Shown here in pieces: positions 8,245 to 54,437 of a stretch of 64,000 bases of DNA; positions within the stretch are counted from its first letter, which is position 1; each line of letters starts with the position of its first letter. The position numbers and the translations under genes were made by a program. The stretch covers positions 65 to 64,064 of the forward strand of contig HF989926.1 in NCBI GenBank assembly GCA_000432255.1. Direction: 5' to 3'. Under the pieces are notes generated by a model, which had not been told where the DNA came from, ran no database searches, and saw only the letters and a program-made list of their open reading frames with translations. Source of the DNA: Acholeplasma sp. CAG:878 (GTDB taxonomy: Bacteria; Bacillota_I; Bacilli_A; RF39; UBA660).

Positions 8245-8270
8245 AACGAGAATTACCTCGTTTCTTTTTT
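8244..8270. terminator. Bidirectional hairpin terminator shared by convergent genes
   Basis: AACGAG-aattac-CTCGTT hairpin with T-runs on both strands. The sortase stop codon lies in the loop. Confidence 0.55.
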
Positions 8271-9059
8271 TATTAATTTGGCATGAATAACAGTTCGCTC
8301 TTTTTTATTATAGCAAGTTGATAAAGTTAATATTTTATCATTCTCACTAACACTAGTTTCAAAATCGTATACACTTCTTTCTTTAATTAGTTCTATAAAA
8401 TTCATAAAGTCATCATTATCGATAAAATTTGTTTGAAGATAATCTGAAGTTGTTGGAATATGGTATACACTAAATACTTGCCAAAGGGTATTTTCTTTTT
8501 CTGAAGACATTTTAATTATAAAATTCTCTTCTTGTTTTAACCAACCATTTTCAGTAATCAATTTTAAAGAACCAAACATGGCTTTATTTAATAAAGCGTG
8601 ACCATATATGATTATATGTTTATCAGTGCCATCTAACTTATTGCGATAATCAGCAAAAATCCAACCAGCCTCATTATATGTTTTATCAAAAGAATGATTT
8701 ATATAAAAATCATTATTATCTGCTTGAACAAATGGATAATTTACATTAGTTCCTTTAACTTGAAGCCATCCTTTAACTCTACTATTAATTTTTTTTAATT
8801 CACTAAAATCAACATTAAGCATATTTAATTTTATATAATCCCAATAAATATTTTTTTTTGGTTTTTCTTCTTGTTCAATGATTTCAACATTTTCATCATC
8901 CGGTTTTTCTTCAATTTTAACTATGTTATTAATTTCTTCAATTTTAGTAACCGTTTCACTTGAATGTTTTGATAATTTAATAACATTAACAACTGATATA
9001 GTTAAACCAACAGCAGAAATAATTAATATCAATATAAAAATAATTTTTTTAATTTTCAT
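8253..9059 (-). CDS. srtB: Class B sortase
   Basis: N-terminal membrane anchor, a YGH motif (HIIIYGHA), catalytic TLSTC and a downstream Arg. The likely start is MKIKK (GGGTGAG RBS), shorter than the track ORF. Confidence 0.8.
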   Translation of the reverse strand: MKIKKIIFILILIISAVGLTISVVNVIKLSKHSSETVTKIEEINNIVKIEEKPDDENVEIIEQEEKPKKNIYWDYIKLNMLNVDFSELKKINSRVKGWLQVKGTNVNYPFVQADNNDFYINHSFDKTYNEAGWIFADYRNKLDGTDKHIIIYGHALLNKAMFGSLKLITENGWLKQEENFIIKMSSEKENTLWQVFSVYHIPTTSDYLQTNFIDNDDFMNFIELIKERSVYDFETSVSENDKILTLSTCYNKKERTVIHAKLIKKETR

Positions 9060-9123
9060 TTTCTCACCCATATTAATTATACTATTTTTATAAATAATAA
9101 GCAAAAGAAAAATAAGTAAAAAC

Positions 9124-11275: not shown

Positions 11276-11965
11276 TCACCTTAAAAATAATAATATTACT
11301 TGAACTGCCATCATAAGTCCATTGTGCATAAAGTGTAAAGACATTGGAACAAATATATTGTTAGATTTCTTTAATGTATAAGCAAAGACTAATCCTGGAA
11401 TAGAATAAGGAATAATATACAACCAATCAGCAAGGCAAGTATAAGAGCCAATAATATGCATTGCTCCAAAACTAATACCAGATAATATTATAAAAATAAT
11501 ATCATTTTTAAATATACATCTAAAACTTAATCTAAACACTAACTCTTCAATAATAGGAGCTAAAACAACTGATGAAATTATTATATAAATAGGAGCAACT
11601 TTAAATAATTCATTAATTGCTTGTTGATTTGTAGCCTGTGAATTAGGGTAAATATTTATTATAATTATATTGGCTATAATCATTAAAGCTACTGCAAAAG
11701 CCCAATATTCAGTATATTTTTTTATATAAGGTTTAAAATTATTTTTATAATCTTTAAAATCATTTATAATTTGATTTTTATAAATAATTAATACAATAGC
11801 AATTAAAATAACTTCAATTGATATATTACATATAACTTTACCAGTTAAGTTGAAATTACTATATCCGATTAAATTTAATAAGTAACTACTACATGTATAA
11901 TATAAAAAATAAAGTACTAAAACCAAAATACCTTTTGATAAACTTTTAATTTCTTCTTTTCTCAT
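11276..11965 (-). CDS. CPBP-family intramembrane metalloprotease (CAAX protease / Abi family)
   Basis: Polytopic membrane protein with the EELVFR, FxxxH (FGAMH) and HFMHN motifs. The start was moved to the ATG after the GAGGTG RBS. Confidence 0.75.
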   Translation of the reverse strand: MRKEEIKSLSKGILVLVLYFLYYTCSSYLLNLIGYSNFNLTGKVICNISIEVILIAIVLIIYKNQIINDFKDYKNNFKPYIKKYTEYWAFAVALMIIANIIIINIYPNSQATNQQAINELFKVAPIYIIISSVVLAPIIEELVFRLSFRCIFKNDIIFIILSGISFGAMHIIGSYTCLADWLYIIPYSIPGLVFAYTLKKSNNIFVPMSLHFMHNGLMMAVQVILLFLR

Positions 11966-12099
11966 AAACACCTCACTATAATATTATAACAAAAAAATAT
12001 AAAAAAATTAATAAAATAATGTTTAACTTTTAAAAAAATGTGATATAATTATAAAGACAACGAGAGTGGGCAATCCCACTCTTTATATTTGGAGGAGTT

Positions 12100-33284: not shown

Positions 33285-33332
33285 TTTAAGGTTAAAAATA
33301 ATTTATAATGATATAAAAGGTAGTTGGTGAAG

Positions 33333-34826
33333 ATGAATAAACGCGGATTTACATTAGTAGAATTAATAGGAACAATTGTAATATTACTTGTTTTAAGTTT
33401 ATTAGTTTTTCCTAATTTATTAAATTTAATTAAAAATTCAAAAAAAGATATAAGTACTTCAACTAAAGATTTTATATATGGACAAGCAAAGTCATATATA
33501 TATGATAATGTTAATGGTTATACTTTAAAAGAAGGAAATATTTATTGTATAGGGTTGAAAGATTTAGTAAGTAAAAATTATTTAAATACTCCATTAAAAG
33601 ATGCTGAATCTGGAAATGATATCGATTTAAGTAAGCAAATAGAGGTAAAAGTTAACAATAATGATTATAGTTATGAATTAGTTGAGACCTGTACTCCTAA
33701 AAGTTATTACACTGACAATAGTGGTGCAAATACGCCTAAATTATTTAATAATATGGTACCAATCAAATACGAGAATAATAAATGGTTAGTAGCTGATTTA
33801 TATTCAAAATGGTATGATTATAATTCTAAACAATGGGCAAATGCAATAGTATTAAATAGTGGAGTTACTAAAAATGTAGGGGATGAAGTAACAGAAGAAG
33901 AAATATCTTTATGGTATGTATGGGTTCCAAGATATAAATATACTATATTTAATGGAAACAAAGGAAATGTTTCTGAACAATTAATCAACATAACCTTTGA
34001 AAATGGAGTAGATAAAACAGGGACATTAAGATGCAATGATAATGCAGATGGAAGTGAAACATGTACTGATAATACATATGGAAGTATAGTAAATGGAAAA
34101 AGTACATACACACATCCAGCATTTAAATTTGGTAATACTAATTTAACTGGATTCTGGGTAGGAAAATTTGAAGTGAGTGGAAGTACAAGTACAATCACAG
34201 TTAAACCAAATGTAACAAGTTTAAGAAATCAAACAGTATCAAGTTTCTTTACAGCCATTCAAAATGTAAAAACAACATATGGAATAAATAATGCAGATTC
34301 ACATATGATGAAAAATATGGAATGGGGAGCAGTAGCATACTTAAAACAAAGTAAATATGGACTAGGAACAACAGATATAGCAGTTAATACAAATTCAAGT
34401 TATTATACTGGTGGAGGAACAAGTGATGCATATAAAACAAATGTTGCTCAGTCAACAACGGGAAATATCTATGGAGTATATGATATGAGTGGTGGCGCTT
34501 GGGAATATGTAATGGGTAATTACAATGATACTATAAGTTCTTCGGGCTTTAGTTCAATGCCGGATAAAAAGTACTATAATAAGTATACAAGTAGTACTGG
34601 AAAAATGGGCGATGCCACTATGGAAACGTTAAAGACTTCTGGTACTTATGGTGGAGGAGATGGATGGTATTCAGATTTTACAAAATTCCCACCAACTAAT
34701 GGTCAATGGTTTTATCGTAGTGGTGGCAATAGTGATGCAAAATATGCTGGTGTATTCTATTTCTATAGTTCTGGTGGTCAATCAATTAAAACAATTTCAT
34801 CTCGTGCAGTTTTATCTGCTCAATAA
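33333..34826 (+). CDS. Prepilin-type (N-terminal cleavage/methylation) protein, 497 aa, with C-terminal FGE-sulfatase/SUMF1-like (C-type-lectin fold) domain
   Basis: The leader MNKRG|FTLVELIGTIVIL has Gly at -1, Phe at +1 and Glu at +5, followed by a hydrophobic helix. The C-terminal motifs NMEWGAVAYL, IYGVYDMSGGAWEYVMGNY, WFYRSGGNS and SSRAVLS match remembered FGE-sulfatase signatures. Confidence 0.7.
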   Translation: MNKRGFTLVELIGTIVILLVLSLLVFPNLLNLIKNSKKDISTSTKDFIYGQAKSYIYDNVNGYTLKEGNIYCIGLKDLVSKNYLNTPLKDAESGNDIDLSKQIEVKVNNNDYSYELVETCTPKSYYTDNSGANTPKLFNNMVPIKYENNKWLVADLYSKWYDYNSKQWANAIVLNSGVTKNVGDEVTEEEISLWYVWVPRYKYTIFNGNKGNVSEQLINITFENGVDKTGTLRCNDNADGSETCTDNTYGSIVNGKSTYTHPAFKFGNTNLTGFWVGKFEVSGSTSTITVKPNVTSLRNQTVSSFFTAIQNVKTTYGINNADSHMMKNMEWGAVAYLKQSKYGLGTTDIAVNTNSSYYTGGGTSDAYKTNVAQSTTGNIYGVYDMSGGAWEYVMGNYNDTISSSGFSSMPDKKYYNKYTSSTGKMGDATMETLKTSGTYGGGDGWYSDFTKFPPTNGQWFYRSGGNSDAKYAGVFYFYSSGGQSIKTISSRAVLSAQ

Positions 34827-34918: not shown

Positions 34919-36517
34919 ATGGTATTAAGAAAGCCGTATGCCTTTTTTATAAAACATTTTAAGCTAATACACTTAATATTAGCAGTTTTATGTATTTATT
35001 CAACAGTACAAACACATAAATTATATACTTTTTTCAGTGATTATATTTATAAAACAGTTAATGTTATAGGACAAGACCTAGTTGGTTCATTATATACTGG
35101 TTTTATGACTTTCGGACCGATTTTAATAATTATATTAACAATTACAATAATGGTTATAATGATTGTAAAAGAAAAACCATTTACATTTTATATAATAAAT
35201 ATATTAATATTTATATATGTAATAATTATTTCACAAGTATGTCAATCTACACTATATGATATGCAAATATCCTTGTTAGATATAAGAGCAATCAGAATAG
35301 TAAGAGATTTAACTTTGGTTAGTTTTGTAATGCAAATAATAAGTTCTATTATTATTGGAATTAGAGGAACAGGCTTTGATGTTAAGAAATTTGATTTCGG
35401 ACAAGATTTACAAGATTTAGAAATAGATGAAAGTGATAGAGAAGAATTTGAAGTTGATTTTTCAGTTGATAGAAATAAAACAAAAAGAAAATTAAAATAT
35501 CAAATTAGGAAGTTAAAATATATTTTCAAAGAAAATAAATTAGCATTTATAGTAGTTACAGTATTTATATTATTAGTAACAGGAGGTTTAACTTATTATT
35601 ATATAAGTACAAGACCTAGGGTTTTAAATCAAGGCGAATTATTTAGAGGAAATGGTCTAAGTTTATCAATTGAAAATAGTTATTTAACTAGATATGATTA
35701 TAAAGGACAAGAAATAGAAAAAGATTTTTCTTTTCTAGTTTTACAAATTAAAGTACTTAATTTAAGTAAATATCAAAATACTCTTCCATTTGCAACATCA
35801 AAAATCGTTATAGGTTCTTATTCATACACGCCAACTTTAAATTATGAAGAGTATTTATTTGATTTTGGTAATATTTATAAAAATGAAAATATAGGTGAAG
35901 AATATACTTATAAAACTTTAATATATAAAATTCCTACTTTACTAACTGATGAAGAAATATTGTTTAATTATGTTAATAAAGTAAATTCAAAAGAAAAATT
36001 CTTTAAAGATGAAGTTAAAATAAGATATATTGATTTAGATAAAGAAAAAGATAAAAAAACTTATGAATTAGGTGAAGAAATTAGTTTTGAAGACTTACCT
36101 TTTAAAAATTATAAAATTAAAATTGATTCTTATGAAATTAAACCTTCGTTTAAATTAGAATATAACTATTGTTATAAAAAGGAATGTACTAAATCATATG
36201 AATATGTAAAACCTAGTATAGTAAGCAATTATGATAAAGTTTTATTAAAATTAAAAGGAACTTATAATTTGAGTGATGAAGTAAATATCGAAGGCGTATA
36301 TGATATTTATGATTTAATTGATAAGTTCGGTTATTTAAAATATGAATTAAATAATGAAGTTAAAACTCAAAATGTTAAATTTAAGGAAGTTACTAGTAAT
36401 AAAGCTAAAGAGATGGATACATACTATATAGAAGTATTAAAAGAATTACAAAATGCTTCAAAGATATCTTTAATTATTAAAATTAGAAATCAAACTTACG
36501 AATATACTTTAAAATAA
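34919..36517 (+). CDS. Polytopic membrane protein with large extracytoplasmic C-terminal domain (532 aa), function unknown
   Basis: About five predicted TM helices in the first ~230 aa, then a beta-rich soluble domain. RBS AAGGAG lies upstream. Confidence 0.6.
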   Translation: MVLRKPYAFFIKHFKLIHLILAVLCIYSTVQTHKLYTFFSDYIYKTVNVIGQDLVGSLYTGFMTFGPILIIILTITIMVIMIVKEKPFTFYIINILIFIYVIIISQVCQSTLYDMQISLLDIRAIRIVRDLTLVSFVMQIISSIIIGIRGTGFDVKKFDFGQDLQDLEIDESDREEFEVDFSVDRNKTKRKLKYQIRKLKYIFKENKLAFIVVTVFILLVTGGLTYYYISTRPRVLNQGELFRGNGLSLSIENSYLTRYDYKGQEIEKDFSFLVLQIKVLNLSKYQNTLPFATSKIVIGSYSYTPTLNYEEYLFDFGNIYKNENIGEEYTYKTLIYKIPTLLTDEEILFNYVNKVNSKEKFFKDEVKIRYIDLDKEKDKKTYELGEEISFEDLPFKNYKIKIDSYEIKPSFKLEYNYCYKKECTKSYEYVKPSIVSNYDKVLLKLKGTYNLSDEVNIEGVYDIYDLIDKFGYLKYELNNEVKTQNVKFKEVTSNKAKEMDTYYIEVLKELQNASKISLIIKIRNQTYEYTLK

Positions 36518-36551: not shown

Positions 36552-37196
36552 ATGAAAAAAATATTATTATTACTTGTATTACTTTGTCTTCCTTATACAA
36601 AAGTTAATGCTTTCTATTGTACTTATCAAGAACAAGCAAGATTAAAAAGCTTAGCTACTAATGTAAATATAAGTTATGATTTCAATGAGAGTAATAAAAC
36701 TTTTACTTTTAACTTAATTAATTTAAATAAGGATTTGTATTTCATGGATAGAACAGATGATAAGATTTACAATTATACAAAAAATGAAATAAATTTGACG
36801 GGTTACAAAAGTGGACAAAAAGTTAAATTTGAATTTTATTCAGATGTTGAATTTTGTGATAAAGTGTTATATACTTATGTAGTAACACTACCAATATATA
36901 ATCCTTATTACAAAGAAAAAGTTTGCGAAGATGTCCAAAATTATAATTTGTGTCAAAAGTGGAGTAATCATGGTTTAAGTAGAACAGCTTTTATTGAAAA
37001 AGTAAACGAATATAAAAAAACATTAGAAAAACCAAAAGAAGATGAAATAAAAGAGGAAACTAAAAAACATATTTCTCTTTTGACTAATGTAATAGAGTTT
37101 TTAACAAGTTATTATTATATTTTTATAATATTAATAGTTGGTATTATTGTTACAGTAATAATTGTTAAGAATAAGAAAAGTAATATATATAAGTAG
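36552..37196 (+). CDS. Secreted, C-terminally membrane-anchored Cys-containing protein (214 aa), function unknown
   Basis: A signal peptide (MKKILLLLVLLCLPYTKVNA) and a C-terminal TM helix with a basic tail. Confidence 0.55.
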   Translation: MKKILLLLVLLCLPYTKVNAFYCTYQEQARLKSLATNVNISYDFNESNKTFTFNLINLNKDLYFMDRTDDKIYNYTKNEINLTGYKSGQKVKFEFYSDVEFCDKVLYTYVVTLPIYNPYYKEKVCEDVQNYNLCQKWSNHGLSRTAFIEKVNEYKKTLEKPKEDEIKEETKKHISLLTNVIEFLTSYYYIFIILIVGIIVTVIIVKNKKSNIYK

Positions 37197-37205
37197 GAGG
37201 TACCA

Positions 37206-37607
37206 ATGAAAGAATCGTTTTGGGGCGCTATGGTCGTAGGACTTGGACTTGTAGCAATATTCTTTATATACTTTTTTCAATCGGTAACTAATGTTGATGA
37301 ACATAACTACCATTTGTTAAAAGAAGCAACCGAAGCTGCTATGCATGATGCATTAGATTTAGGTTTATATAGAGAAAAAGGAGAAGTTAGAATCGATAGA
37401 GAGAAATTTGTTGAAAATTTCTTAAGAAGATTTGCTGAGAGTGCAACTTTATCTGATAATTATCAAATTGATATTTATGATGTCAATGAAGAACCACCTA
37501 AAGTTACCTTGGTAGTTAAAAGTGGAAAGGATACTGGTTTAACTGGAGAAAAAATGGAATTCACTATTGAAAACAAATTAAATGCAATATTTGAAATACC
37601 ATATTAG
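37206..37607 (+). CDS. N-terminally membrane-anchored small protein (133 aa), function unknown (pilus-assembly accessory?)
   Basis: A single N-terminal TM helix (GAMVVGLGLVAIFFIYFF) and a soluble acidic domain. It is tightly coupled to the flanking genes. Confidence 0.5.
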   Translation: MKESFWGAMVVGLGLVAIFFIYFFQSVTNVDEHNYHLLKEATEAAMHDALDLGLYREKGEVRIDREKFVENFLRRFAESATLSDNYQIDIYDVNEEPPKVTLVVKSGKDTGLTGEKMEFTIENKLNAIFEIPY

Positions 37608-37627: not shown

Positions 37628-38497
37628 ATGAATAATGTTTTAGTTTCAATTAAAAGATTTTTTAAAAACAAAAATGTCGTTACAGTATTAGGAGTAATAT
37701 TAATATTAGGTTTATTATATTTTGGTTATAATAGAACTATTAAAGAACAAACAAATCCAGTTAGAATTCCAGTTGCTACACAAACAATTCAACCAAGAAC
37801 TTTAATTACAGATGAAATGGTTACATTTATAAGTGTACCAAAGTCAATGGTATCAGATAACGTATTGAAGGGTACAGGTAGTATTGTAGACAAGTATACA
37901 GCTGTTAATACAGTAATTCCAAAAGGAAGCATGTTTTATTCAGATGTATTAGTTGAAAAAGAAGATTTACCAGATTCAGCATTTGTTGAAGTTCCAGTTG
38001 GACAAACACCATATGCATTATCTGTTACTAGCCAATCAACTTATGGAAATTCAATTTTTCCAGGTAACATTATCGATGTTTATATGAAAGCAACTGATGA
38101 AAATGGACAAATTATTGTAGGTAGATTATTAGAGGATGTTAAAGTATTAGCTGTTAAAGATAATGCAGGTAACAATGTATTTGAAGATACAACAGCCAAT
38201 AGAACTCCATCAACACTATTATTTGGTGTTAATAATGAAACTTACGTATTATTAAAAAGAGCTGAATACTTAAAATCAAAAGGAGTTGAACTATTCCCAG
38301 TTCCTTATGGTGGTAATGTTCAATTAACAGGTAATACTAAAGTTGATAGAGAAGAATTAGTTGAATTAATCGATTCATTAAGTATTGGTTATATAAGTGA
38401 AGATGAATTCCAAGATCAAGTTCAAGACGAAATTGAAAAAAATCAACAAGAACAACAAGAAAATCAAAATAGTCAACAAAATAATGGAGCACAATAA
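37628..38497 (+). CDS. CpaB/RcpC-like pilus assembly protein (SAF domain)
   Basis: N-terminal TM helix, a SAF-like segment (PVRIPVATQTIQPRTLITDEMVTFISVPKS) and a Gln-rich C-terminus. Confidence 0.6.
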   Translation: MNNVLVSIKRFFKNKNVVTVLGVILILGLLYFGYNRTIKEQTNPVRIPVATQTIQPRTLITDEMVTFISVPKSMVSDNVLKGTGSIVDKYTAVNTVIPKGSMFYSDVLVEKEDLPDSAFVEVPVGQTPYALSVTSQSTYGNSIFPGNIIDVYMKATDENGQIIVGRLLEDVKVLAVKDNAGNNVFEDTTANRTPSTLLFGVNNETYVLLKRAEYLKSKGVELFPVPYGGNVQLTGNTKVDREELVELIDSLSIGYISEDEFQDQVQDEIEKNQQEQQENQNSQQNNGAQ

Positions 38498-39573
38498 TGC
38501 ACGAAACATTATTTTCGCAAATTGATTTTGGACCACTATTACCATATTTAAATAGTGATGATGTCACTGATATTTCATACAGTAACAATGGTCAAATATG
38601 GTTAAAAACATTATCTCGTGGTATCTTTAGGGTTGAAAATTCTGAAGTAAATAATGCCATGATGGAAAAACTTGCTTTCCAATGCTCAAACGTTATGGGG
38701 AAAACATTTAATATGGCTCACCCATTCTTGGATTCAGAAAGTCCAGAACTTCGTATGAATTTCGTTCACGAATCAATTGCTACAAATGGTATTGCATGTG
38801 TTATCCGTAAAACACCAGCTAAAATAAGACTTGAAAAAGAAAAAATAATTGCTGAAAAGTATATTACTTTAGATGTTCATGATTTTTTAGTTCAATGTGT
38901 TTTAGGACATTGTAATATAATTGTTTGTGGTGAGACTGGTAGTGGTAAAACGGAGTTTGTTAAATATTTGGCATCTAAAACAAAAGAAAATGAAAAAATA
39001 ATTACAATTGAAGATACTTTGGAACTCCATTTAGATAGAATATTTCCTCATAGAGATATTGTTGCAATGAAAACAAATAATGTTGCTTCATACTCAGAAG
39101 TATTAGTTACTTGTATGCGTCAAAACCCTAAATGGATATTATTATCCGAAGTTCGTAGCGCTGAAGCAGTAACGGCAGTTCGTAACTCAATTTCATCAGG
39201 ACACTATATTTTATCTACAATCCATGCTGACAAAGCATCCGCTATACCTACTCGTATGTATAGTTTGCTTGAAACTAGCCAAGATGTTGAGCAATTCTTA
39301 AAAACAATTCATAGATATGTTCAATTAGGAGTATTAGTAAGAGGTTATCAGGATAAAGTAACAAAAAGGTTTGTTCGTGAAATAGGAGAAGTTACAGAGT
39401 TTTATGTCGATGAAGACAATAACTCAAGATACAATGTTATTTATCAAAAAGCGCCAACTGGTAAAGTAATAAGACATAATCCAACAAAATATTTAATCGA
39501 TTATATTGAAGGACAAGGTGTTACTCTACCAGAAGGGTTTGTTAATCCAGCTTATGATATTAAAGAAGATTAA
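38497..39573 (+). CDS. CpaF/TadA/VirB11-family secretion ATPase
   Basis: Walker A (VCGETGSGKTEF), Walker B with the Asp/His boxes of the T2SS-E/VirB11 superfamily, and a size of 358 aa typical of TadA. Confidence 0.75.
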   Translation: MHETLFSQIDFGPLLPYLNSDDVTDISYSNNGQIWLKTLSRGIFRVENSEVNNAMMEKLAFQCSNVMGKTFNMAHPFLDSESPELRMNFVHESIATNGIACVIRKTPAKIRLEKEKIIAEKYITLDVHDFLVQCVLGHCNIIVCGETGSGKTEFVKYLASKTKENEKIITIEDTLELHLDRIFPHRDIVAMKTNNVASYSEVLVTCMRQNPKWILLSEVRSAEAVTAVRNSISSGHYILSTIHADKASAIPTRMYSLLETSQDVEQFLKTIHRYVQLGVLVRGYQDKVTKRFVREIGEVTEFYVDEDNNSRYNVIYQKAPTGKVIRHNPTKYLIDYIEGQGVTLPEGFVNPAYDIKED

Positions 39574-39586
39574 GGAGGAGTAAAAA

Positions 39587-40489
39587 ATGAATGAGTTTAT
39601 TTTTATAGCAATAGCCTTTATACTAATTTTTATCATTGTATATAGAAAAAATAGTGGTGAAAATGTATATAAGTATATAAGTAGAAATGTAGGACTTATA
39701 TATGAAAAATTTGCTCCTTATTCTTTTAAAATGGTAAGGGAAAAAGTTAAAGAACTAGGACAAGAATATACACCTAGACAATATGCAGTTCAAATAATAG
39801 CCTTTTCCGTAGGTGCGGCAGTTGTATCATATTTATACTTTTATAACTTAGTTTGGTGTATTGTATATATAGCAGTTGCGGTAGCAATTATTCCTTACTT
39901 AGCTTATTTAAGATGTAAAAGATTATATAGTGAATTTATATTTGAACAAATTCAAGTTTATACTACCAACACTATAATGGAATTTGCAACAACTCAAAGT
40001 TTTGTTAAAGCCTTAGAAGGTGTTTATGAATCTGGTGTATTAGAAGACCCAGTTAGAAGCGATGTTAAGATGATGATTGATTTGGCATATAAAAATGGTA
40101 CAATTACTGAATCAGTTGATTATATGAATAGTAGATATGATTATTACATAGTTAGAAATATGCACCAACTATTTACCCAAATTACTAATGAAGGTGCAAG
40201 AGATGCATCTGGTTCGTTAGAAAATATGTCACTTGATATTGATATGTTAGTTGAAGGCGTTTATAGAGATAGAATCGATAGAGCAACATTCCATAAAAAA
40301 TTCTTACAATTTGGTGTTGTATTATATTTAATGATTATGTTAGTTCAGTTCTTACTTGGAACTGAAACATATCTTGAAATGCTTAAAATTTGGTATGTTC
40401 AATTATTACTACACGGAATTATAATTATTAATACATATTTTATCCTTAATGGAGAAAAATTCTATAATGAGAATGTGGGGGCTGAGTAA
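39587..40489 (+). CDS. TadB-like (T2SS-F-family) inner membrane protein
   Basis: Polytopic membrane protein of ~300 aa immediately downstream of the ATPase, as expected for TadB. The sequence match itself was not verified. Confidence 0.5.
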   Translation: MNEFIFIAIAFILIFIIVYRKNSGENVYKYISRNVGLIYEKFAPYSFKMVREKVKELGQEYTPRQYAVQIIAFSVGAAVVSYLYFYNLVWCIVYIAVAVAIIPYLAYLRCKRLYSEFIFEQIQVYTTNTIMEFATTQSFVKALEGVYESGVLEDPVRSDVKMMIDLAYKNGTITESVDYMNSRYDYYIVRNMHQLFTQITNEGARDASGSLENMSLDIDMLVEGVYRDRIDRATFHKKFLQFGVVLYLMIMLVQFLLGTETYLEMLKIWYVQLLLHGIIIINTYFILNGEKFYNENVGAE

Positions 40490-41277
40490 TGTTATTTTTA
40501 GCAATCGGTATAATTTTATTGTTTATAATGTTTTATAATAACTATATTGATACTCAAGGCTTTATTAAAGAAACTCAACCTATATTTGGATTTCTTAAAG
40601 AAAGTGATTATGAATTTTTAGTTAGTGTAAAATATGGTGGAATTGATAAAGTTGATATTAACAAATTATTTGGAATAAGAGTTAGAAACGGTTTATTGGT
40701 AATTGTATTAATGTTATTCTACTTTATTAAAGATTTAAAATTTATCTATATTTTAGTTTCTGTAATAGTAGGATATGTTGTATTTAAATCTTCATATACA
40801 AGTTTAAAATCTTATTACAAAAAGAATTTATATAATATTAATTTAATGTTACCTTACTATTTAAAAAGTTTGGAAATTTTAGTTCAACACTATACTGTTC
40901 CAGTTGCACTATCTCGTTCAATTGAAACAGCACCTGATGTTTTTAAACCAGGCTTAAGAAAATTGGTTGACAGAATAGAAGCTGGAGATTCGACGGTTGA
41001 CCCATATATGGATTTTGCTAAAGAATATCCAGTTAGGGATTCAATGCGTATGATGAGATTGTTATACAGACTAGGGTTGGGAAGTCAAGAAAACAAACAA
41101 GAACAATTAATGATGTTTTCAAGAACTGTATCTAACTTACAAAACAAATCTCGTGAACAAAAATACGCTGAAAGACTTGAAAGAATGGAAAAGAAAACCA
41201 TGATTATGTTATTTGTAACTGGTGGTGGTATACTACTATTAATGTTGTTATCAATGATGATGATGATGAATTATTAA
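40489..41277 (+). CDS. TadC-like (T2SS-F-family) inner membrane protein
   Basis: Polytopic membrane protein of 262 aa, translationally coupled to the preceding gene (ATGA overlap). Confidence 0.5.
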   Translation: MLFLAIGIILLFIMFYNNYIDTQGFIKETQPIFGFLKESDYEFLVSVKYGGIDKVDINKLFGIRVRNGLLVIVLMLFYFIKDLKFIYILVSVIVGYVVFKSSYTSLKSYYKKNLYNINLMLPYYLKSLEILVQHYTVPVALSRSIETAPDVFKPGLRKLVDRIEAGDSTVDPYMDFAKEYPVRDSMRMMRLLYRLGLGSQENKQEQLMMFSRTVSNLQNKSREQKYAERLERMEKKTMIMLFVTGGGILLLMLLSMMMMMNY

Positions 41278-41362
41278 CAATGATTTTACAAAAAAAAATA
41301 AAAAAATGTAAAAATTGTTAAAATTGTGTTATAATAAAGATATACGAGAAGGTGGTGATTAG

Positions 41363-41596
41363 ATGAAAGAAGCTGCTGGAGAAGCAAATATGACAGTTAT
41401 TACAATCATTCTAATTGGAGTTATCGCAGCTATAGCTATTCCACTTGTAAGAAATGCGATGACAAGTACAAGTAAACAAGCTTGTTGTAATAGTGCCGGA
41501 GGTGTTTGGTCAGGAGGAGAATGTGCTGAATTATCTGCTAGTGGCCAAAGCACATATGATGCATGTGTTTCTAAAACTGAAAATGCAGGACAATAA
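41363..41596 (+). CDS. Small Flp-like (atypical) pilin candidate, 77 aa, with 4-Cys C-terminal region
   Basis: A strong RBS GAAGGTGGTG, then a short polar leader ending in Gly (MKEAAG), a ~22-aa hydrophobic segment and the C-terminus CCNSAGGVWSGGECAEL...DACV. It has its own terminator. The Flp EY motif is lacking. Confidence 0.55.
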   Translation: MKEAAGEANMTVITIILIGVIAAIAIPLVRNAMTSTSKQACCNSAGGVWSGGECAELSASGQSTYDACVSKTENAGQ

Positions 41597-41603
41597 TATG
41601 AAT

Positions 41604-41636
41604 CTCGTTTCTTGAAAATAGAAACGAGGTTTTTAT
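41604..41636 (+). terminator. Rho-independent terminator after the small pilin gene
   Basis: CTCGTTTC-ttgaaaata-GAAACGAG hairpin followed by GTTTTT. Confidence 0.8.
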
Positions 41637-41829
41637 TATGTCTGAATTAACATATCAATATGAAATTGAAATGTAATAAAAATTGTCATGCAAAATAAGT
41701 TAAACTTCTTGTACAAGTTTAGTAATATCTAAAAACATATTTTATTATGAAATAAAAGAGATTGGGTATTGAAAATTTGTGTTAAATATTATACAATTAT
41801 GTAAATATGTGTTGGGAGTGTGTTTTGGT

Positions 41830-44622
41830 ATGTTTGGTAGTTCTAATACAAAAGATAATAAAATGATTTCAAAAAACCGCAAATGCCTTTTTTGTGGTTT
41901 TAATGTTAAGATGGGATTCACGTTAATTGAATTGCTTGCTGCGTTGGTAGTTTTGGCGATAATAGCTTTAATAGTATATCCTACAATTGGCAAATTATTA
42001 GCAAATAATAAAACAAAAGCATATGAAAAACAATTAGATGTAATAGAGGTTGCTGCTTCTAACTGGCTAATTGAAAATGAAGGCAAATTGAAAGATAACG
42101 CCTATGCTCTACCAATAAATGATATAGTTGGAAGCGGATTTATAGAAGAAAATGAATTGATTAATCCAATTAATAACGAACCACTTACAGGATGCATTTT
42201 CATAACATGGAGAAAAAATATTAAACAATACGAATATAATTATGTTGAAAATTGCGAAGAGTTTATAGTACCAAAATTATTGTCATTAAAAGCAAGTAGC
42301 AGTGAGAATGAACACGGATGGAGAAACAAAGATTTTTATGTTTCTCTAAGTGGAGAATATTTAGAAAACTATTATTATTGTATAGATAACAAAAAATGTG
42401 AACCAAATATAATGGTAACTGATGTAAATAAGACTATAGCATTTAATGAAGAAGGAATAAAATACGTTTGTGCTTACGGAACGAATAAATCAGGAGAAAC
42501 AGAATCGATTTGTGAAAAATATAAATTAGATAAAACGAAACCAGTTATTGGGAGTATTGTATTTAGTGGAAAACAAGGTTTAAATAATTGGTTTGTATCA
42601 GACGTAACTGTTAATGTAACAGAATCAACTGATGCTTTAAGTGGAATAGATAATAATATATTAAGTCCAAGTGAAACATCAATAACAAAAGATACTAAAG
42701 GAACAACATATACTTTAACTGCAAAAGATAAAGCTGGAAACATAAGTAGTGTTAGTTATGCTGTAAAAATAGATAAAACCAAACCAATACTAGGAACACT
42801 AACAATAAGTGGAACTAAAGGAAATAATGATTGGTATAAAAGTGATGTAGTATTTAGTGTTAAGGATGGTAGTGATAGTATGTCAGGACACGCTTCTACT
42901 ACATCAAGTATTACAAGTATAACCAAAGATACTAAAGGAACGAAAGTAATATTAACAACCAAAGATAATGCTGGTAATACTACAACTAAAGAATATATAA
43001 TTAAAATGGACAAAACAGCACCTACAATAGAAATGGTTAATCCGACTAATGGTAATTGGACAAATAAAAATATAGAAATAACAAGTAATTTTTCTGATAA
43101 TATATCAGGAATAGTACCATCATCATTAGCGTGGTCAGATGATAATACTAATTGGCATAACTATTCTAATACAAGTACAACAACATTTAAAGATACGTGG
43201 AGTGGTGAAGGAAATAGAACGGGTTATAACAAAGTGTGTGATTATGCTGGAAACTGTAGTACAACATCTACTCCAATTAGAATCGATAAAACCAATCCAA
43301 TAGTAGGGGAGTTAGTAGTAGCAAGTGGGACTTTAGGCACAAATGGTTGGTACACAAGTAATGTAGTGTTTAGTGTGAAAAATGGAAGTGATGCATTAAG
43401 TGGACATGGTAGTACAACAAGTAGTATAAGTAGCATAACAACAAATACAAAAGGAACAAATGTGGTAGTGACAACAAAAGATAAAGCAGGAAATAGTACA
43501 GCAAAAACATACACATTTAAAGTAGATAAAAACGCACCTACCATAACTCCTAAATATTCAACTGTAACAATAGGAAGCATAAGTGAAGTAAATGTATCGG
43601 ATTTGTTTATAATTAATTATTCAATTAGTGGAGGATACGTAACTTGTAATGTTAATAAAACAAAAGATATAAAAGCTGTTAATAATCCACTTAGATGTAC
43701 AGCAACTGGAGGAAATGGATTAATTGCTGAAGCAAAAATAAATGTTAAAAACCAATTAGCAAGTATTGCTGTTACTACCCCACCAAATAAAACATTATAT
43801 TCCGTTGGTTCTGCTTTTGATAAAACAGGTATGGTAGTTACAGCATATTATAAAGATGGAACCTCAAAAGTGGTTACCAATTATACTATTGAGTCAAGTG
43901 TAACACGATATGGCCGTTCTCATATAGGTAAGGTTAAAAAGAACTGGGGGATCAATTATTTATATCCAACTAGAAGAGACCTTGATGAATACGATGATTT
44001 AATTATAACTTATACTGAAGATGGTGTTACTAAAACCACAACTACGCCAATAACGGTTGCTATATATGCAAATCAAGTAAAAAATATTGTTATAGCTTCA
44101 GAACTTTCAAGAGTTAATGTAGCTAAAGTAACAAATTATTATTCAAATCCGGGTGGTACAAGTCATATTAAAACTTCATATGAAATACCAACAGATAACG
44201 AGTATTATAGATATGAGGTTGGTTCTAATTATATTAGACTGCATTCGTTAAAAGCAGGATATTATTCAAGTGATTCTATAAGAGTTCATTTTGAATTATA
44301 CGATGGTACTATATTTAGAGCGGGATATTTTGAAAATATAGATAGCGTAAATACAGATATTAAATATAGTTTTACAGTAGCAAGATTTATTAAGAATTCC
44401 CCACCTTATGGACAATTCTTAGGAGCTACAGGATATTTATTCCAACAACCGCTAACAACCATAGTGTTAGGATGGCAAACATTCAATAATATAACAGATG
44501 CTTCTGGATCTGCGCCTATTGGTGCTTCAGCTCAAAACGGAGCGACTTATATGGAATATAAGTTTTCTAACTTTGTTATGAATGGTAGAAATATGAATGT
44601 TGTGTATACACTTGATTCTTAA
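41830..44622 (+). CDS. Giant prepilin-type protein (~930 aa) with pilin-like N-domain, four tandem ~95-aa Ig-like repeats and a Big_3-like module; candidate pilus adhesin
   Basis: The prepilin motif ...KMG|FTLIELLAALVVLAIIALIV has Glu at +5. The repeats read DKTKPxIGxLxxSGxxGxNxWYxSDVxFSVxDGSDxxSG...TKDTKGT...KDxAGNxS...DKTxP. A Big_3-like segment is LASIAVTTPPNKTLYSVGSAFDKTGMVVTAYYKDGTSKVV. The start is uncertain (41779, 41830 or 41863). No LPXTG sorting signal. Confidence 0.65.
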   Translation: MFGSSNTKDNKMISKNRKCLFCGFNVKMGFTLIELLAALVVLAIIALIVYPTIGKLLANNKTKAYEKQLDVIEVAASNWLIENEGKLKDNAYALPINDIVGSGFIEENELINPINNEPLTGCIFITWRKNIKQYEYNYVENCEEFIVPKLLSLKASSSENEHGWRNKDFYVSLSGEYLENYYYCIDNKKCEPNIMVTDVNKTIAFNEEGIKYVCAYGTNKSGETESICEKYKLDKTKPVIGSIVFSGKQGLNNWFVSDVTVNVTESTDALSGIDNNILSPSETSITKDTKGTTYTLTAKDKAGNISSVSYAVKIDKTKPILGTLTISGTKGNNDWYKSDVVFSVKDGSDSMSGHASTTSSITSITKDTKGTKVILTTKDNAGNTTTKEYIIKMDKTAPTIEMVNPTNGNWTNKNIEITSNFSDNISGIVPSSLAWSDDNTNWHNYSNTSTTTFKDTWSGEGNRTGYNKVCDYAGNCSTTSTPIRIDKTNPIVGELVVASGTLGTNGWYTSNVVFSVKNGSDALSGHGSTTSSISSITTNTKGTNVVVTTKDKAGNSTAKTYTFKVDKNAPTITPKYSTVTIGSISEVNVSDLFIINYSISGGYVTCNVNKTKDIKAVNNPLRCTATGGNGLIAEAKINVKNQLASIAVTTPPNKTLYSVGSAFDKTGMVVTAYYKDGTSKVVTNYTIESSVTRYGRSHIGKVKKNWGINYLYPTRRDLDEYDDLIITYTEDGVTKTTTTPITVAIYANQVKNIVIASELSRVNVAKVTNYYSNPGGTSHIKTSYEIPTDNEYYRYEVGSNYIRLHSLKAGYYSSDSIRVHFELYDGTIFRAGYFENIDSVNTDIKYSFTVARFIKNSPPYGQFLGATGYLFQQPLTTIVLGWQTFNNITDASGSAPIGASAQNGATYMEYKFSNFVMNGRNMNVVYTLDS

Positions 44623-50677: not shown

Positions 50678-50762
50678 GCTTGTGTGGCGGAACTGGTAGA
50701 CGCGCACGACTCAAAATCGTGTAACTTATGTTGTGAGGGTTCGATTCCCTCCACAAGCACCA
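50678..50762 (+). tRNA. tRNA-Leu (anticodon CAA)
   Basis: Cloverleaf folded by hand: acceptor GCTTGTG/CACAAGC, D-arm, anticodon stem CACGA/TCGTG with loop CT-CAA-AA (U33, A37), a long variable arm, T-arm GAGGG-TTCGATT-CCCTC, discriminator A and an encoded CCA. Track ORF 50684-50878 is spurious. Confidence 0.85.

Positions 50763-51221: not shown

Positions 51222-54437
<3,216 letters not shown>

Follow-up and report, generated by a model that had tools for sequence, protein, structure and literature searches.

Gram-positive tad loci have been described with Flp-like pilins that lack Tyr6, alongside tad-like loci without recognisable pilins (Imam et al. 2011, PMC3244431). In gut Clostridia, clusters that combine CpaF, PilC/GspF and DUF5411 have been predicted to be pilus-like or type II secretion system-like (Miller et al. 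2022, PMC9523054), and a 2024 study dealt with a Tad-like cluster of the TANB77 lineage (PMC11680825). Here, we analysed a stretch of 64,000 nucleotides from Acholeplasma sp. CAG:878 (contig HF989926.1 of assembly GCA_000432255.1, positions 65 to 64,064 of the forward strand; hereafter the window), which carries a gene for a 77-residue protein (41363..41596 including the stop codon, + strand) next to a Tad-like gene module. We consider this protein to be probably the major pilin of a divergent Tad-like type IV filament of RF39-type gut Bacilli. This reading is based on the expression signals of the gene, its conservation and synteny, a leader shared with neighbouring proteins, the predicted structure and the parity of the cysteine count. 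The Tad-like machine type is already known, and none of these three papers describes the pilin family; the motif MKEAAGEAN does not occur in the searchable literature, in which we also found no paper linking RF39 with this pilus-type system.

The coding sequence starts with ATG at 41363 and ends with TAA at 41594-41596. It matches exactly the open reading frame (ORF) and protein of the original prediction, including the leader MKEAAG, the hydrophobic stretch (M10-V29) and the cysteines at positions 41, 42, 54 and 68. The Shine-Dalgarno sequence GAAGGTGGTGA (41348..41358, + strand) comprises GAAGGTGGTG at 41348-41357 and AAGGTGGTGA at 41349-41358, the latter 4 nt 5' of the start codon. Its pairing with the 3' end of 16S rRNA is predicted at −16.4 kcal/mol, compared with −4.3 to −12.2 kcal/mol for the remaining operon genes, so that it is indeed the strongest ribosome-binding site of the operon, as had been claimed; it ranks in the top ~5% of the 56 ORFs of the window (median −9.35 kcal/mol). 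A AAGGTGGTGA-type site is conserved at 82 of 83 orthologous loci. The dedicated terminator also proved to be real. It spans 41600..41637 (+ strand) and consists of a 13-pair stem (41600-41632, with a core in which 41604-41612 pairs with 41620-41628) and a 7-nt loop, followed by the T-run TTTTTATT. Its predicted folding energy is −20.1 kcal/mol (z = −5.7), which none of 200 shuffled sequences equalled, and Rfam gave no known RNA element at the locus. In addition, we found an extended −10 promoter element that had not been noticed previously. This element, TGtTATAAT (41327..41335, + strand), is a perfect match and is dedicated to the pilin gene; at 73 of 83 orthologous loci, a TGnTAnAAT element is present at −33 to −44 of the start codon. 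Therefore, the gene has its own conserved high-expression signals.

Within codons 1-12, the residues are almost fixed, and the synonymous sites are free to vary. Ala4, for example, is encoded by GCA in 39 cases and GCT in 32, and Asn9 by AAT in 40 and AAC in 37; the 90-nt sequences are distinct at 76 of 77 loci. This pattern indicates selection on the protein and not on the RNA, and the constraint places the translation start at 41363. Position 10 was rejected as the true start, since 45 of 77 loci have Leu (TTA) there and selection at the level of the protein acts on codons 1-9. The ORF is a genuine gene and not a chance ORF because it has more than 1,300 conserved counterparts among database proteins and varies only synonymously in codons 1-12.

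A database search returned 1,372 relatives at E ≤ 0.01, none with a Pfam domain and nearly all unnamed, and an exhaustive search of 50%-identity representatives returned 225 clusters at E ≤ 0.001. Among species-representative genomes, the family is encoded at 269 loci. The best 80 of these are mostly from metagenome-assembled genomes labelled 'Bacilli', Tenericutes, Mycoplasmatota, 'Candidatus Coprosoma' or 'Firmicutes bacterium CAG:822', with a few other labels such as Muribaculaceae and Ignavibacteriales; the dominant labels point to RF39-type uncultured gut Bacilli. The exact 77-residue sequence is recorded in 784 blocks of the assembly collection, and an identical copy of a 300-residue protein encoded nearby is labelled 'Candidatus Faecisoma sp.' at NCBI; the window can probably be assigned to this taxon. 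In some genomes, an additional or orphan copy lies apart from the machine genes, or two copies are in tandem (L066:8750-8944, L072, L074, L082 and L083). The plasmid, phage and viral-contig collections that we searched contained no relatives, and a mobile-element origin of the gene was rejected on this basis.

In 261 members of the family, M1, K2, E3, A4, G6, E7, A8, N9, T11, V12, I15, L17 and I18 are invariant or nearly so, and G19 or A19, A23 and P27 are strongly preferred. Residues 1-12 thus form a near-invariant sequence, MKEAAGEAN[M/L]TV. Past residue ~40, the family varies in both sequence and length (41-111 residues in total). A nearly invariant segment of residues 1-29 followed by a variable tail is a pilin-like pattern. 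On this conservation, we divided the gene into the codons of a putative 6-residue leader, MKEAAG (41363..41380, + strand), and those of the invariant E7-A8-N9 together with the hydrophobic helix M10-V29 (41381..41449, + strand), which includes G19 and P27 and would be equivalent to the N-terminal half of the pilin α1 helix (α1-N).

The same pattern bears on an alternative that had been raised for this gene, namely that it encodes a secreted, disulfide-stabilised small peptide (bacteriocin-like or signal-like), whose hydrophobic stretch would be a removed Sec signal peptide. The small size of the product, its four cysteines in the C-terminal part and a tail that differs between species, like that of some antimicrobial peptides, would all suit such a peptide. 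However, conservation within the protein is highest in the hydrophobic segment, which is the opposite of what is seen in signal peptides. The n-region has a net negative charge, and a conserved cleavage site of the AxA type is missing after the hydrophobic stretch. Furthermore, the cluster contains no immunity, ATP-binding cassette exporter or modification genes, the gene is strictly linked to a pilus-type machine, and relatives on plasmids or phages are lacking. Because the 29 N-terminal residues are invariant and the cysteine-containing tail is variable, we regard a secreted peptide as highly improbable.

The variable head (41483..41593, + strand) contains all four cysteines, with C41 and C42 preceding a predicted β-hairpin (residues 48-55, including C54) and a helix (residues 59-75, including C68). 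The number of cysteines is even (2, 4 or 6) in 254 of 261 members. Members with two cysteines mostly retain C42 and a cysteine 12-14 residues downstream (C54), and those with four have C41 and a distal cysteine at variable spacing in addition. The even counts and this pattern of retention would imply disulfide bonds C42-C54 and C41-C68 in an extracytoplasmic tail, and they support the two potential disulfides of the original prediction. An AlphaFold2 model based on an alignment of 84 sequences (pLDDT 85.5) has helices at residues 4-45 and 59-75 and a hairpin formed by strands 48-50 and 53-55. The overall shape is a 42-residue helix with a small hairpin-plus-helix head. When the family profile was compared with the PDB, the best matches were the N-terminal helices of type IV pilins, although they were weak (8pfb, PilE1, E = 0.008, followed by 8tob and 1oqw). 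The archaeal Pfam family Pilin_N (PF07790) matched over the hydrophobic helix at 18.3 bits (E = 0.0044), below its cut-off of 25.2 bits.

The pilin gene lies immediately 3' of a TadC-like gene in 73 of 82 related loci, and the order of the genes preceding it is preserved in nearly all of the 82 loci with sufficient flank (TadC-like, 73; TadB-like, 71; ATPase, 69; CpaB, 67; DUF5411, 65). The exceptions are mostly contig ends, and some are extra or orphan copies (L066, L072, L074 and L083). Homologues therefore do adjoin Tad genes, and the assignment of the product as a major-pilin candidate of the adjacent Tad-like operon is supported by the synteny of the module. All genes of the module are on the + strand. 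The core of the machine is a 358-residue secretion ATPase of the CpaF/TadA-VirB11-FlaI group (38497..39573; Pfam T2SSE, 7.4e-27). Among solved structures, Caulobacter CpaF is the closest to it (6.8e-18), with VirB11 and FlaI ranking lower, and the ATPase scores below the trusted cut-offs of every NCBIfam equivalog. It is preceded by a 289-residue CpaB/RcpC-like protein (37628..38497; Pfam RcpC, 1.5e-8, 35 bits against a Pfam cut-off of 28.8 bits; TIGR03177 cpaB, 4e-12) and followed by two polytopic membrane proteins, which are TadB-like (300 residues, 39587..40489) and TadC-like (262 residues, 40489..41277) platform candidates. Upstream of the CpaB gene is that of a 133-residue DUF5411 protein (37206..37607; Pfam DUF5411, 2.4e-54). 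No ParA-like ATPase of the TadZ/CpaE type was found by Pfam in the module of the window.

The module begins with two genes whose products match no known family. The first encodes a 532-residue membrane protein with ~5 transmembrane helices and a large outer domain (34919..36517; syntenic in 58 loci), in which the N-terminal motif RKPYAFFIKHFKLIH and the cytoplasmic loop ATGFDxKKFDF are conserved and which has no Pfam match. The second encodes a 214-residue protein with a signal peptide and a C-terminal membrane anchor (36552..37196; syntenic in 60 loci), a conserved member of the module with no match in Pfam or NCBIfam. Across loci, the ATPase and the two platform-like proteins are 60-85% identical (59-83% for the TadC-like protein), and the products of the first two genes are 30-50% identical.

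Clusters of the same architecture occur on plasmids of Priestia koreensis and Bacillus cereus (pCER270, pXO1-like), where genes for DUF5411, CpaB/SAF, a ParA-like ATPase, a CpaF/VirB11-family ATPase and two membrane proteins are followed by genes for small proteins. In hhalign comparisons, the profile of the 300-residue protein matched a Priestia plasmid protein annotated as a 'type II secretion system F family protein' (95% probability, E = 4e-8), and that of the 262-residue protein matched the product of the next gene (96.5%, E = 8e-10). The former Priestia protein matches Pfam T2SSF at 3.4e-5, just under the cut-off. Through this intermediate, a platform identity is supported for both proteins at the level of sequence profiles. 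In pCER270 (NC_010924.1), the position of the pilin gene after the platform-like genes is occupied by three tandem, near-identical genes for proteins of 67-68 residues (L090:16946-17698). These begin with MLTKMKNWLKNEDSQLSSENG followed by MLIALAVIIVLVIGPF, are annotated as hypothetical and have no Pfam match, and they look like unrecognised Flp-like pilins. The presence of tandem Flp-like genes at the same position supports the pilin reading. In an hhalign comparison of the pilin profile with the pCER270 protein, no relationship was found past the first residues (probability <1%).

The N-terminus of the 77-residue protein is not unique within the cluster. The DUF5411 protein starts with M-K-E-S-F-W-G and continues with a hydrophobic stretch (65 orthologues). 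Most relatives also have two paralogues of ~150 residues encoded 3' of the pilin gene, of which 139 of 147 start with M-[RK]-E-[SAG]-I-G-[NST], again with a hydrophobic stretch after it; when the pilin profile was aligned with one of these neighbours by hhalign, no relationship was detected past the first residues. A leader of the type M-[KR]-E-x-x-G is therefore common to the pilin, DUF5411 and the ~150-residue neighbours. One leader type on three families in one cluster would be expected for major and minor pilins that share a processing enzyme. Of the arguments internal to the cluster, this one is the strongest in favour of cleavage after Gly6, which we infer for the 77-residue protein, and it suggests that DUF5411 proteins are minor pilins of Firmicute Tad-like systems.

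Several observations weigh against the pilin reading. The protein matched neither Flp_Fap (PF04964) nor N_methyl nor TadE (Pfam at E ≤ 1, and NCBIfam), and, unlike both large proteins encoded beside the module, it has no match to the GFxxxE profiles (PF07963 and TIGR02532). Gly6 is followed by E-A-N-M-T-V, with Thr at +5 and Val at +6 in the 261 members, instead of Glu and Tyr. Leader peptides that are cleaved and lost are not usually invariant. Exported proteins of anaerobic Firmicutes seldom contain conserved disulfides. A Foldseek search of the model against the PDB gave no meaningful match, although matches are difficult to obtain for small models that consist mostly of one helix. For the 300- and 262-residue proteins, there was no direct profile match to Pfam T2SSF or to PDB sequences, and hhalign detected no similarity between the two; the AlphaFold model of the platform was poor (pLDDT 65), its Foldseek matches were noise, and a database search returned only close, unannotated relatives. 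Finally, no GxGD[x]K/R (A24) motif was found in a six-frame search of the window and of ~10 kb around the gene at 86 loci (~1.4 Mb), nor was a Peptidase_A24 match found among the window genes that have Pfam data. A TadV/CpaA-type A24 peptidase gene is thus not linked to the pilin in the window or at these loci, the invariant residues of the 532-residue membrane protein include no GxGD-type catalytic signature, and the Bacillaceae plasmid clusters have no prepilin peptidase nearby either. By sequence, the 77-residue protein is pilin-like in its layout and belongs to no named pilin family. The original prediction had described a Flp/Fap-like layout without the Glu-Tyr pair; the type IV prepilin layout (a short charged leader ending in Gly, then ~20 hydrophobic residues) and the lack of Glu-Tyr were both found, and membership in Flp_Fap was not. 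As for the hydrophobic helix, its PDB profile matches place it closer to type IVa pilins than to Flp.

Some of these points would fit the main rival explanation, in which the protein remains uncleaved as a single-pass, fixed part of the machine (a stator, an assembly factor or a regulator of the ATPase or platform) and MKEAAGEAN is a contact site in the cytoplasm. The invariance of the first nine residues at the protein level is better suited to a binding epitope than to a leader that is lost, a prepilin peptidase gene is linked at none of ~80 loci, and E5/Y6 and a GFxxxE motif are absent. On the other hand, a dedicated promoter, the strongest ribosome-binding site and a terminator point to a product required in large excess over the machine. 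The hypervariable extracellular tail is as in an exposed filament surface, three families of the cluster have this leader type, and the equivalent position in pCER270 is occupied by tandem Flp-like pilins. Taking both sides together, we judge a fixed, uncleaved subunit to be quite unlikely and retain the major-pilin reading.

With respect to the peptidase, the two large flanking proteins are informative. One is a 500-residue protein with the prepilin signal KRG-FTLVE and an FGE-sulfatase-like domain (33324..34826, + strand; N_methyl, 8.5e-6; FGE-sulfatase, 4.1e-5). The other is encoded by an ORF of up to 947 residues with the prepilin signal G-FTLIE and immunoglobulin-like repeats (41779..44622, + strand; N_methyl, 1.6e-4; Big_3, 3.5e-4; TIGR02532, 1.4e-5), whose true start is probably downstream of the GTG codon. 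Canonical GFTL[IV]E prepilin signals need a PilD/ComC-type enzyme. Because the window encodes these two canonical proteins, it is likely that the species has an unlinked prepilin peptidase.

From these observations, the following assembly pathway can be proposed. The gene would be transcribed from its own extended −10 promoter and by read-through from the operon, with transcription stopping at its own terminator, and translation from the strongest ribosome-binding site of the cluster would provide the subunit in excess over the machine, as its sequence signals suggest. The protein would be inserted into the membrane with the short N-terminus inside and the cysteine tail outside, an orientation to which the even cysteine counts point. 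An unlinked prepilin-type peptidase, probably the enzyme that the flanking GFTL[IV]E proteins require, would then remove MKEAAG after Gly6 and leave Glu7 as the new N-terminus. By analogy with Tad and type IV pili, the CpaF-like ATPase, acting through the two platform-like proteins, may extract the subunits from the membrane and stack their hydrophobic helices into the core of a filament. The CpaB/RcpC-like protein may serve as an envelope-spanning collar, and the DUF5411 protein, having the same kind of leader, may be a minor pilin that initiates the filament or sits at its tip. The variable head, pinned by C42-C54 and C41-C68, would form the filament surface. The role of such a filament is likely to be attachment to, or contact with, surfaces or other cells.

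The region 3' of the pilin gene occurs in two forms. Most relatives have, 3' of the pilin gene, the two genes for ~150-residue proteins, a gene for a ~330-residue protein and one to three genes for two-helix proteins that weakly match T4SS_pilin. Further 3' are VirB6-, VirB3/PrgI-, TraC- and VirB4-like genes, a gene for a CHAP/SpoIID hydrolase and one for a VirD4-type coupling protein (PF02534, 5.7e-58). These genes of a type IV secretion system (T4SS) are on the same strand as the pilin gene and form a Gram-positive-type set, examples of which are L006:10300-20228, L023:10294-20214 and the metagenome loci L091-L170 (e.g., L162:13428-15578). No relaxase or integrase was seen in the long clusters before the housekeeping genes (~10 kb 3' of VirB4 inspected). 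The ~330-residue protein was considered as a TadZ-like component, but this was unsupported since it has no similarity to AAA_31, CbiA or PDB sequences. In the second form, found in the species of the window and its nearest relative (L007), none of these genes is located by the module, and the 64-kb window contains none of them.

These long clusters raise the question of whether the filament mainly serves a T4SS or a DNA-uptake apparatus instead of adhesion, with the species of the window being a reduced derivative. In favour of this, most relatives have minor-pilin-like, VirB2-like (the weak T4SS_pilin matches), VirB6-, VirB3- and VirB4-like, hydrolase and VirD4 genes after the pilin gene, and chromosomal T4SSs without a relaxase have been reported for Patescibacteria (PMC12102498), which the relaxase-less set of the relatives resembles. 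However, the pilin and the machine are still fully conserved in the window and in L007, where all of these genes are missing next to the module, and adjacency of genes is no proof of joint function. We therefore consider a filament dedicated mainly to such an organelle to be possible but doubtful. Contact for the transfer of DNA or proteins is plausible as a specialised use of the filament in the relatives that have the T4SS set, because the module is joined to this set in most of them. A bolder proposal, which we think rather unlikely, is that the M-[KR]-E-x-x-G leader defines a separate class of type IV-filament subunits, matured or recognised uncleaved without a linked A24 peptidase, and that in most RF39-type Bacilli the filament is one half of a composite machine fixed in the chromosome. 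A relaxase-less T4SS with VirD4 would be the other half, and these bacteria with small genomes would use the whole to exchange DNA or proteins with their neighbours.

GFTLIE-type genes, such as those of the two proteins with canonical prepilin signals, flank the module in this species and in L033 only, and the 947-residue ORF stands in place of the downstream genes seen in the relatives. Between strains that share 99-100% identity in the module genes, the 500-residue protein has an identity of 74-80%; the 947-residue ORF is 84-100% identical between strains and split in L002. This suggests that both are fast-evolving surface proteins. Elsewhere in the window, positions 1-957 are the 3' end of a 23S rRNA gene, after which comes a 5S rRNA gene (1023-1127). 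Genes for a sortase-domain protein (8253-9104, − strand) and an Rce1-like (CPBP) intramembrane protease (11276-11971, − strand) lie ~30 kb upstream and are unlinked to the pilus module. A tRNA gene (50678-50759) is followed by genes for a large serine recombinase (51320-53212) and a Mob_Pre relaxase (53139-54437), and strain L088 has small KilA-N genes in place of the recombinase/relaxase region; the segment 50678-54437 is probably a strain-specific integrative mobilizable element.

The human and animal gut commonly harbours RF39-type Bacilli, which are uncultured and have small genomes, and whose cell surface is almost uncharted. The 77-residue protein is likely a major surface filament subunit of this lineage. 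Its family has no Pfam or NCBIfam model, so that its members are currently annotated as 'hypothetical protein', and MKEAAGEAN[M/L]TV provides a simple diagnostic motif for detecting them. If the pilin reading is true, the range of Tad-type pilins would be widened to include a Glu residue at +1, a 6-residue leader and a disulfide-pinned head. The eight genes form a defined module that is open to heterologous expression, and the missing peptidase and the fusion with T4SS genes in relatives are concrete, testable questions.

Compared with described filament subunits, the protein combines features of several groups. With the Flp pilins (Aggregatibacter Flp1 and Caulobacter PilA; PF04964), it shares a small size (~50-80 residues), a location beside genes for a CpaF/TadA ATPase, two platform or platform-like proteins and CpaB/RcpC, a leader ending in Gly, a hydrophobic helix of ~20 residues and strong expression signals of its own. 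In contrast to Flp, its leader has 6 residues instead of ~15-30, Glu is at +1 in place of the Glu5-Tyr6 pair, the Flp_Fap model does not match, and the locus contains no TadV gene. Whereas Flp is essentially helical and without cysteines, the head of this protein is predicted to be a disulfide-pinned hairpin and helix. The archaeal type IV pilins (PF07790), which do not require Glu5, are similar in the sub-threshold match of the helix; they differ in that the present host is bacterial and no EppA/PibD-type peptidase gene was seen. Tad systems are reportedly thought, following Denise and co-workers in 2019, to derive from archaeal Epd-like pili.

Type IVa and ComGC-type pilins have a 6-residue leader ending in Gly and a disulfide-stabilised C-terminal region, as is predicted for the present protein. 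Counted from Glu7, the Gly and Pro residues of the helix are at +13 and +21, with the G14/P22 spacing of these pilins, and the PDB profile matches are to PilE1, a 70-residue 'fimbrial protein' (8tob) and PAK pilin. The 77-residue protein differs from this group in lacking Phe1, Glu5 and a match to N_methyl/GFxxxE, in its much smaller head, and in its machine, which is of the CpaF/CpaB type and not of the PilB/PilC/PilM type. The systems of gut Clostridia (PMC9523054) and of TANB77 (PMC11680825) are also Tad-like machines of uncultured or commensal gut Firmicutes with many unannotated single-helix membrane proteins proposed as pilins, and DUF5411 is a hallmark of the former; they belong to other lineages and have other candidate pilins, and the MKEAAGEAN family appears in neither paper. 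Relative to the Flp-like loci without Tyr6 and to pCER270, the small proteins differ, those of pCER270 having a 21-residue leader ending in ENG and no cysteines. The locus shares with them a Firmicute Tad-like cluster of DUF5411, CpaB, a CpaF/VirB11-family ATPase, two membrane proteins and small proteins with a hydrophobic helix, and with pCER270 it has in common that no peptidase gene is adjacent.

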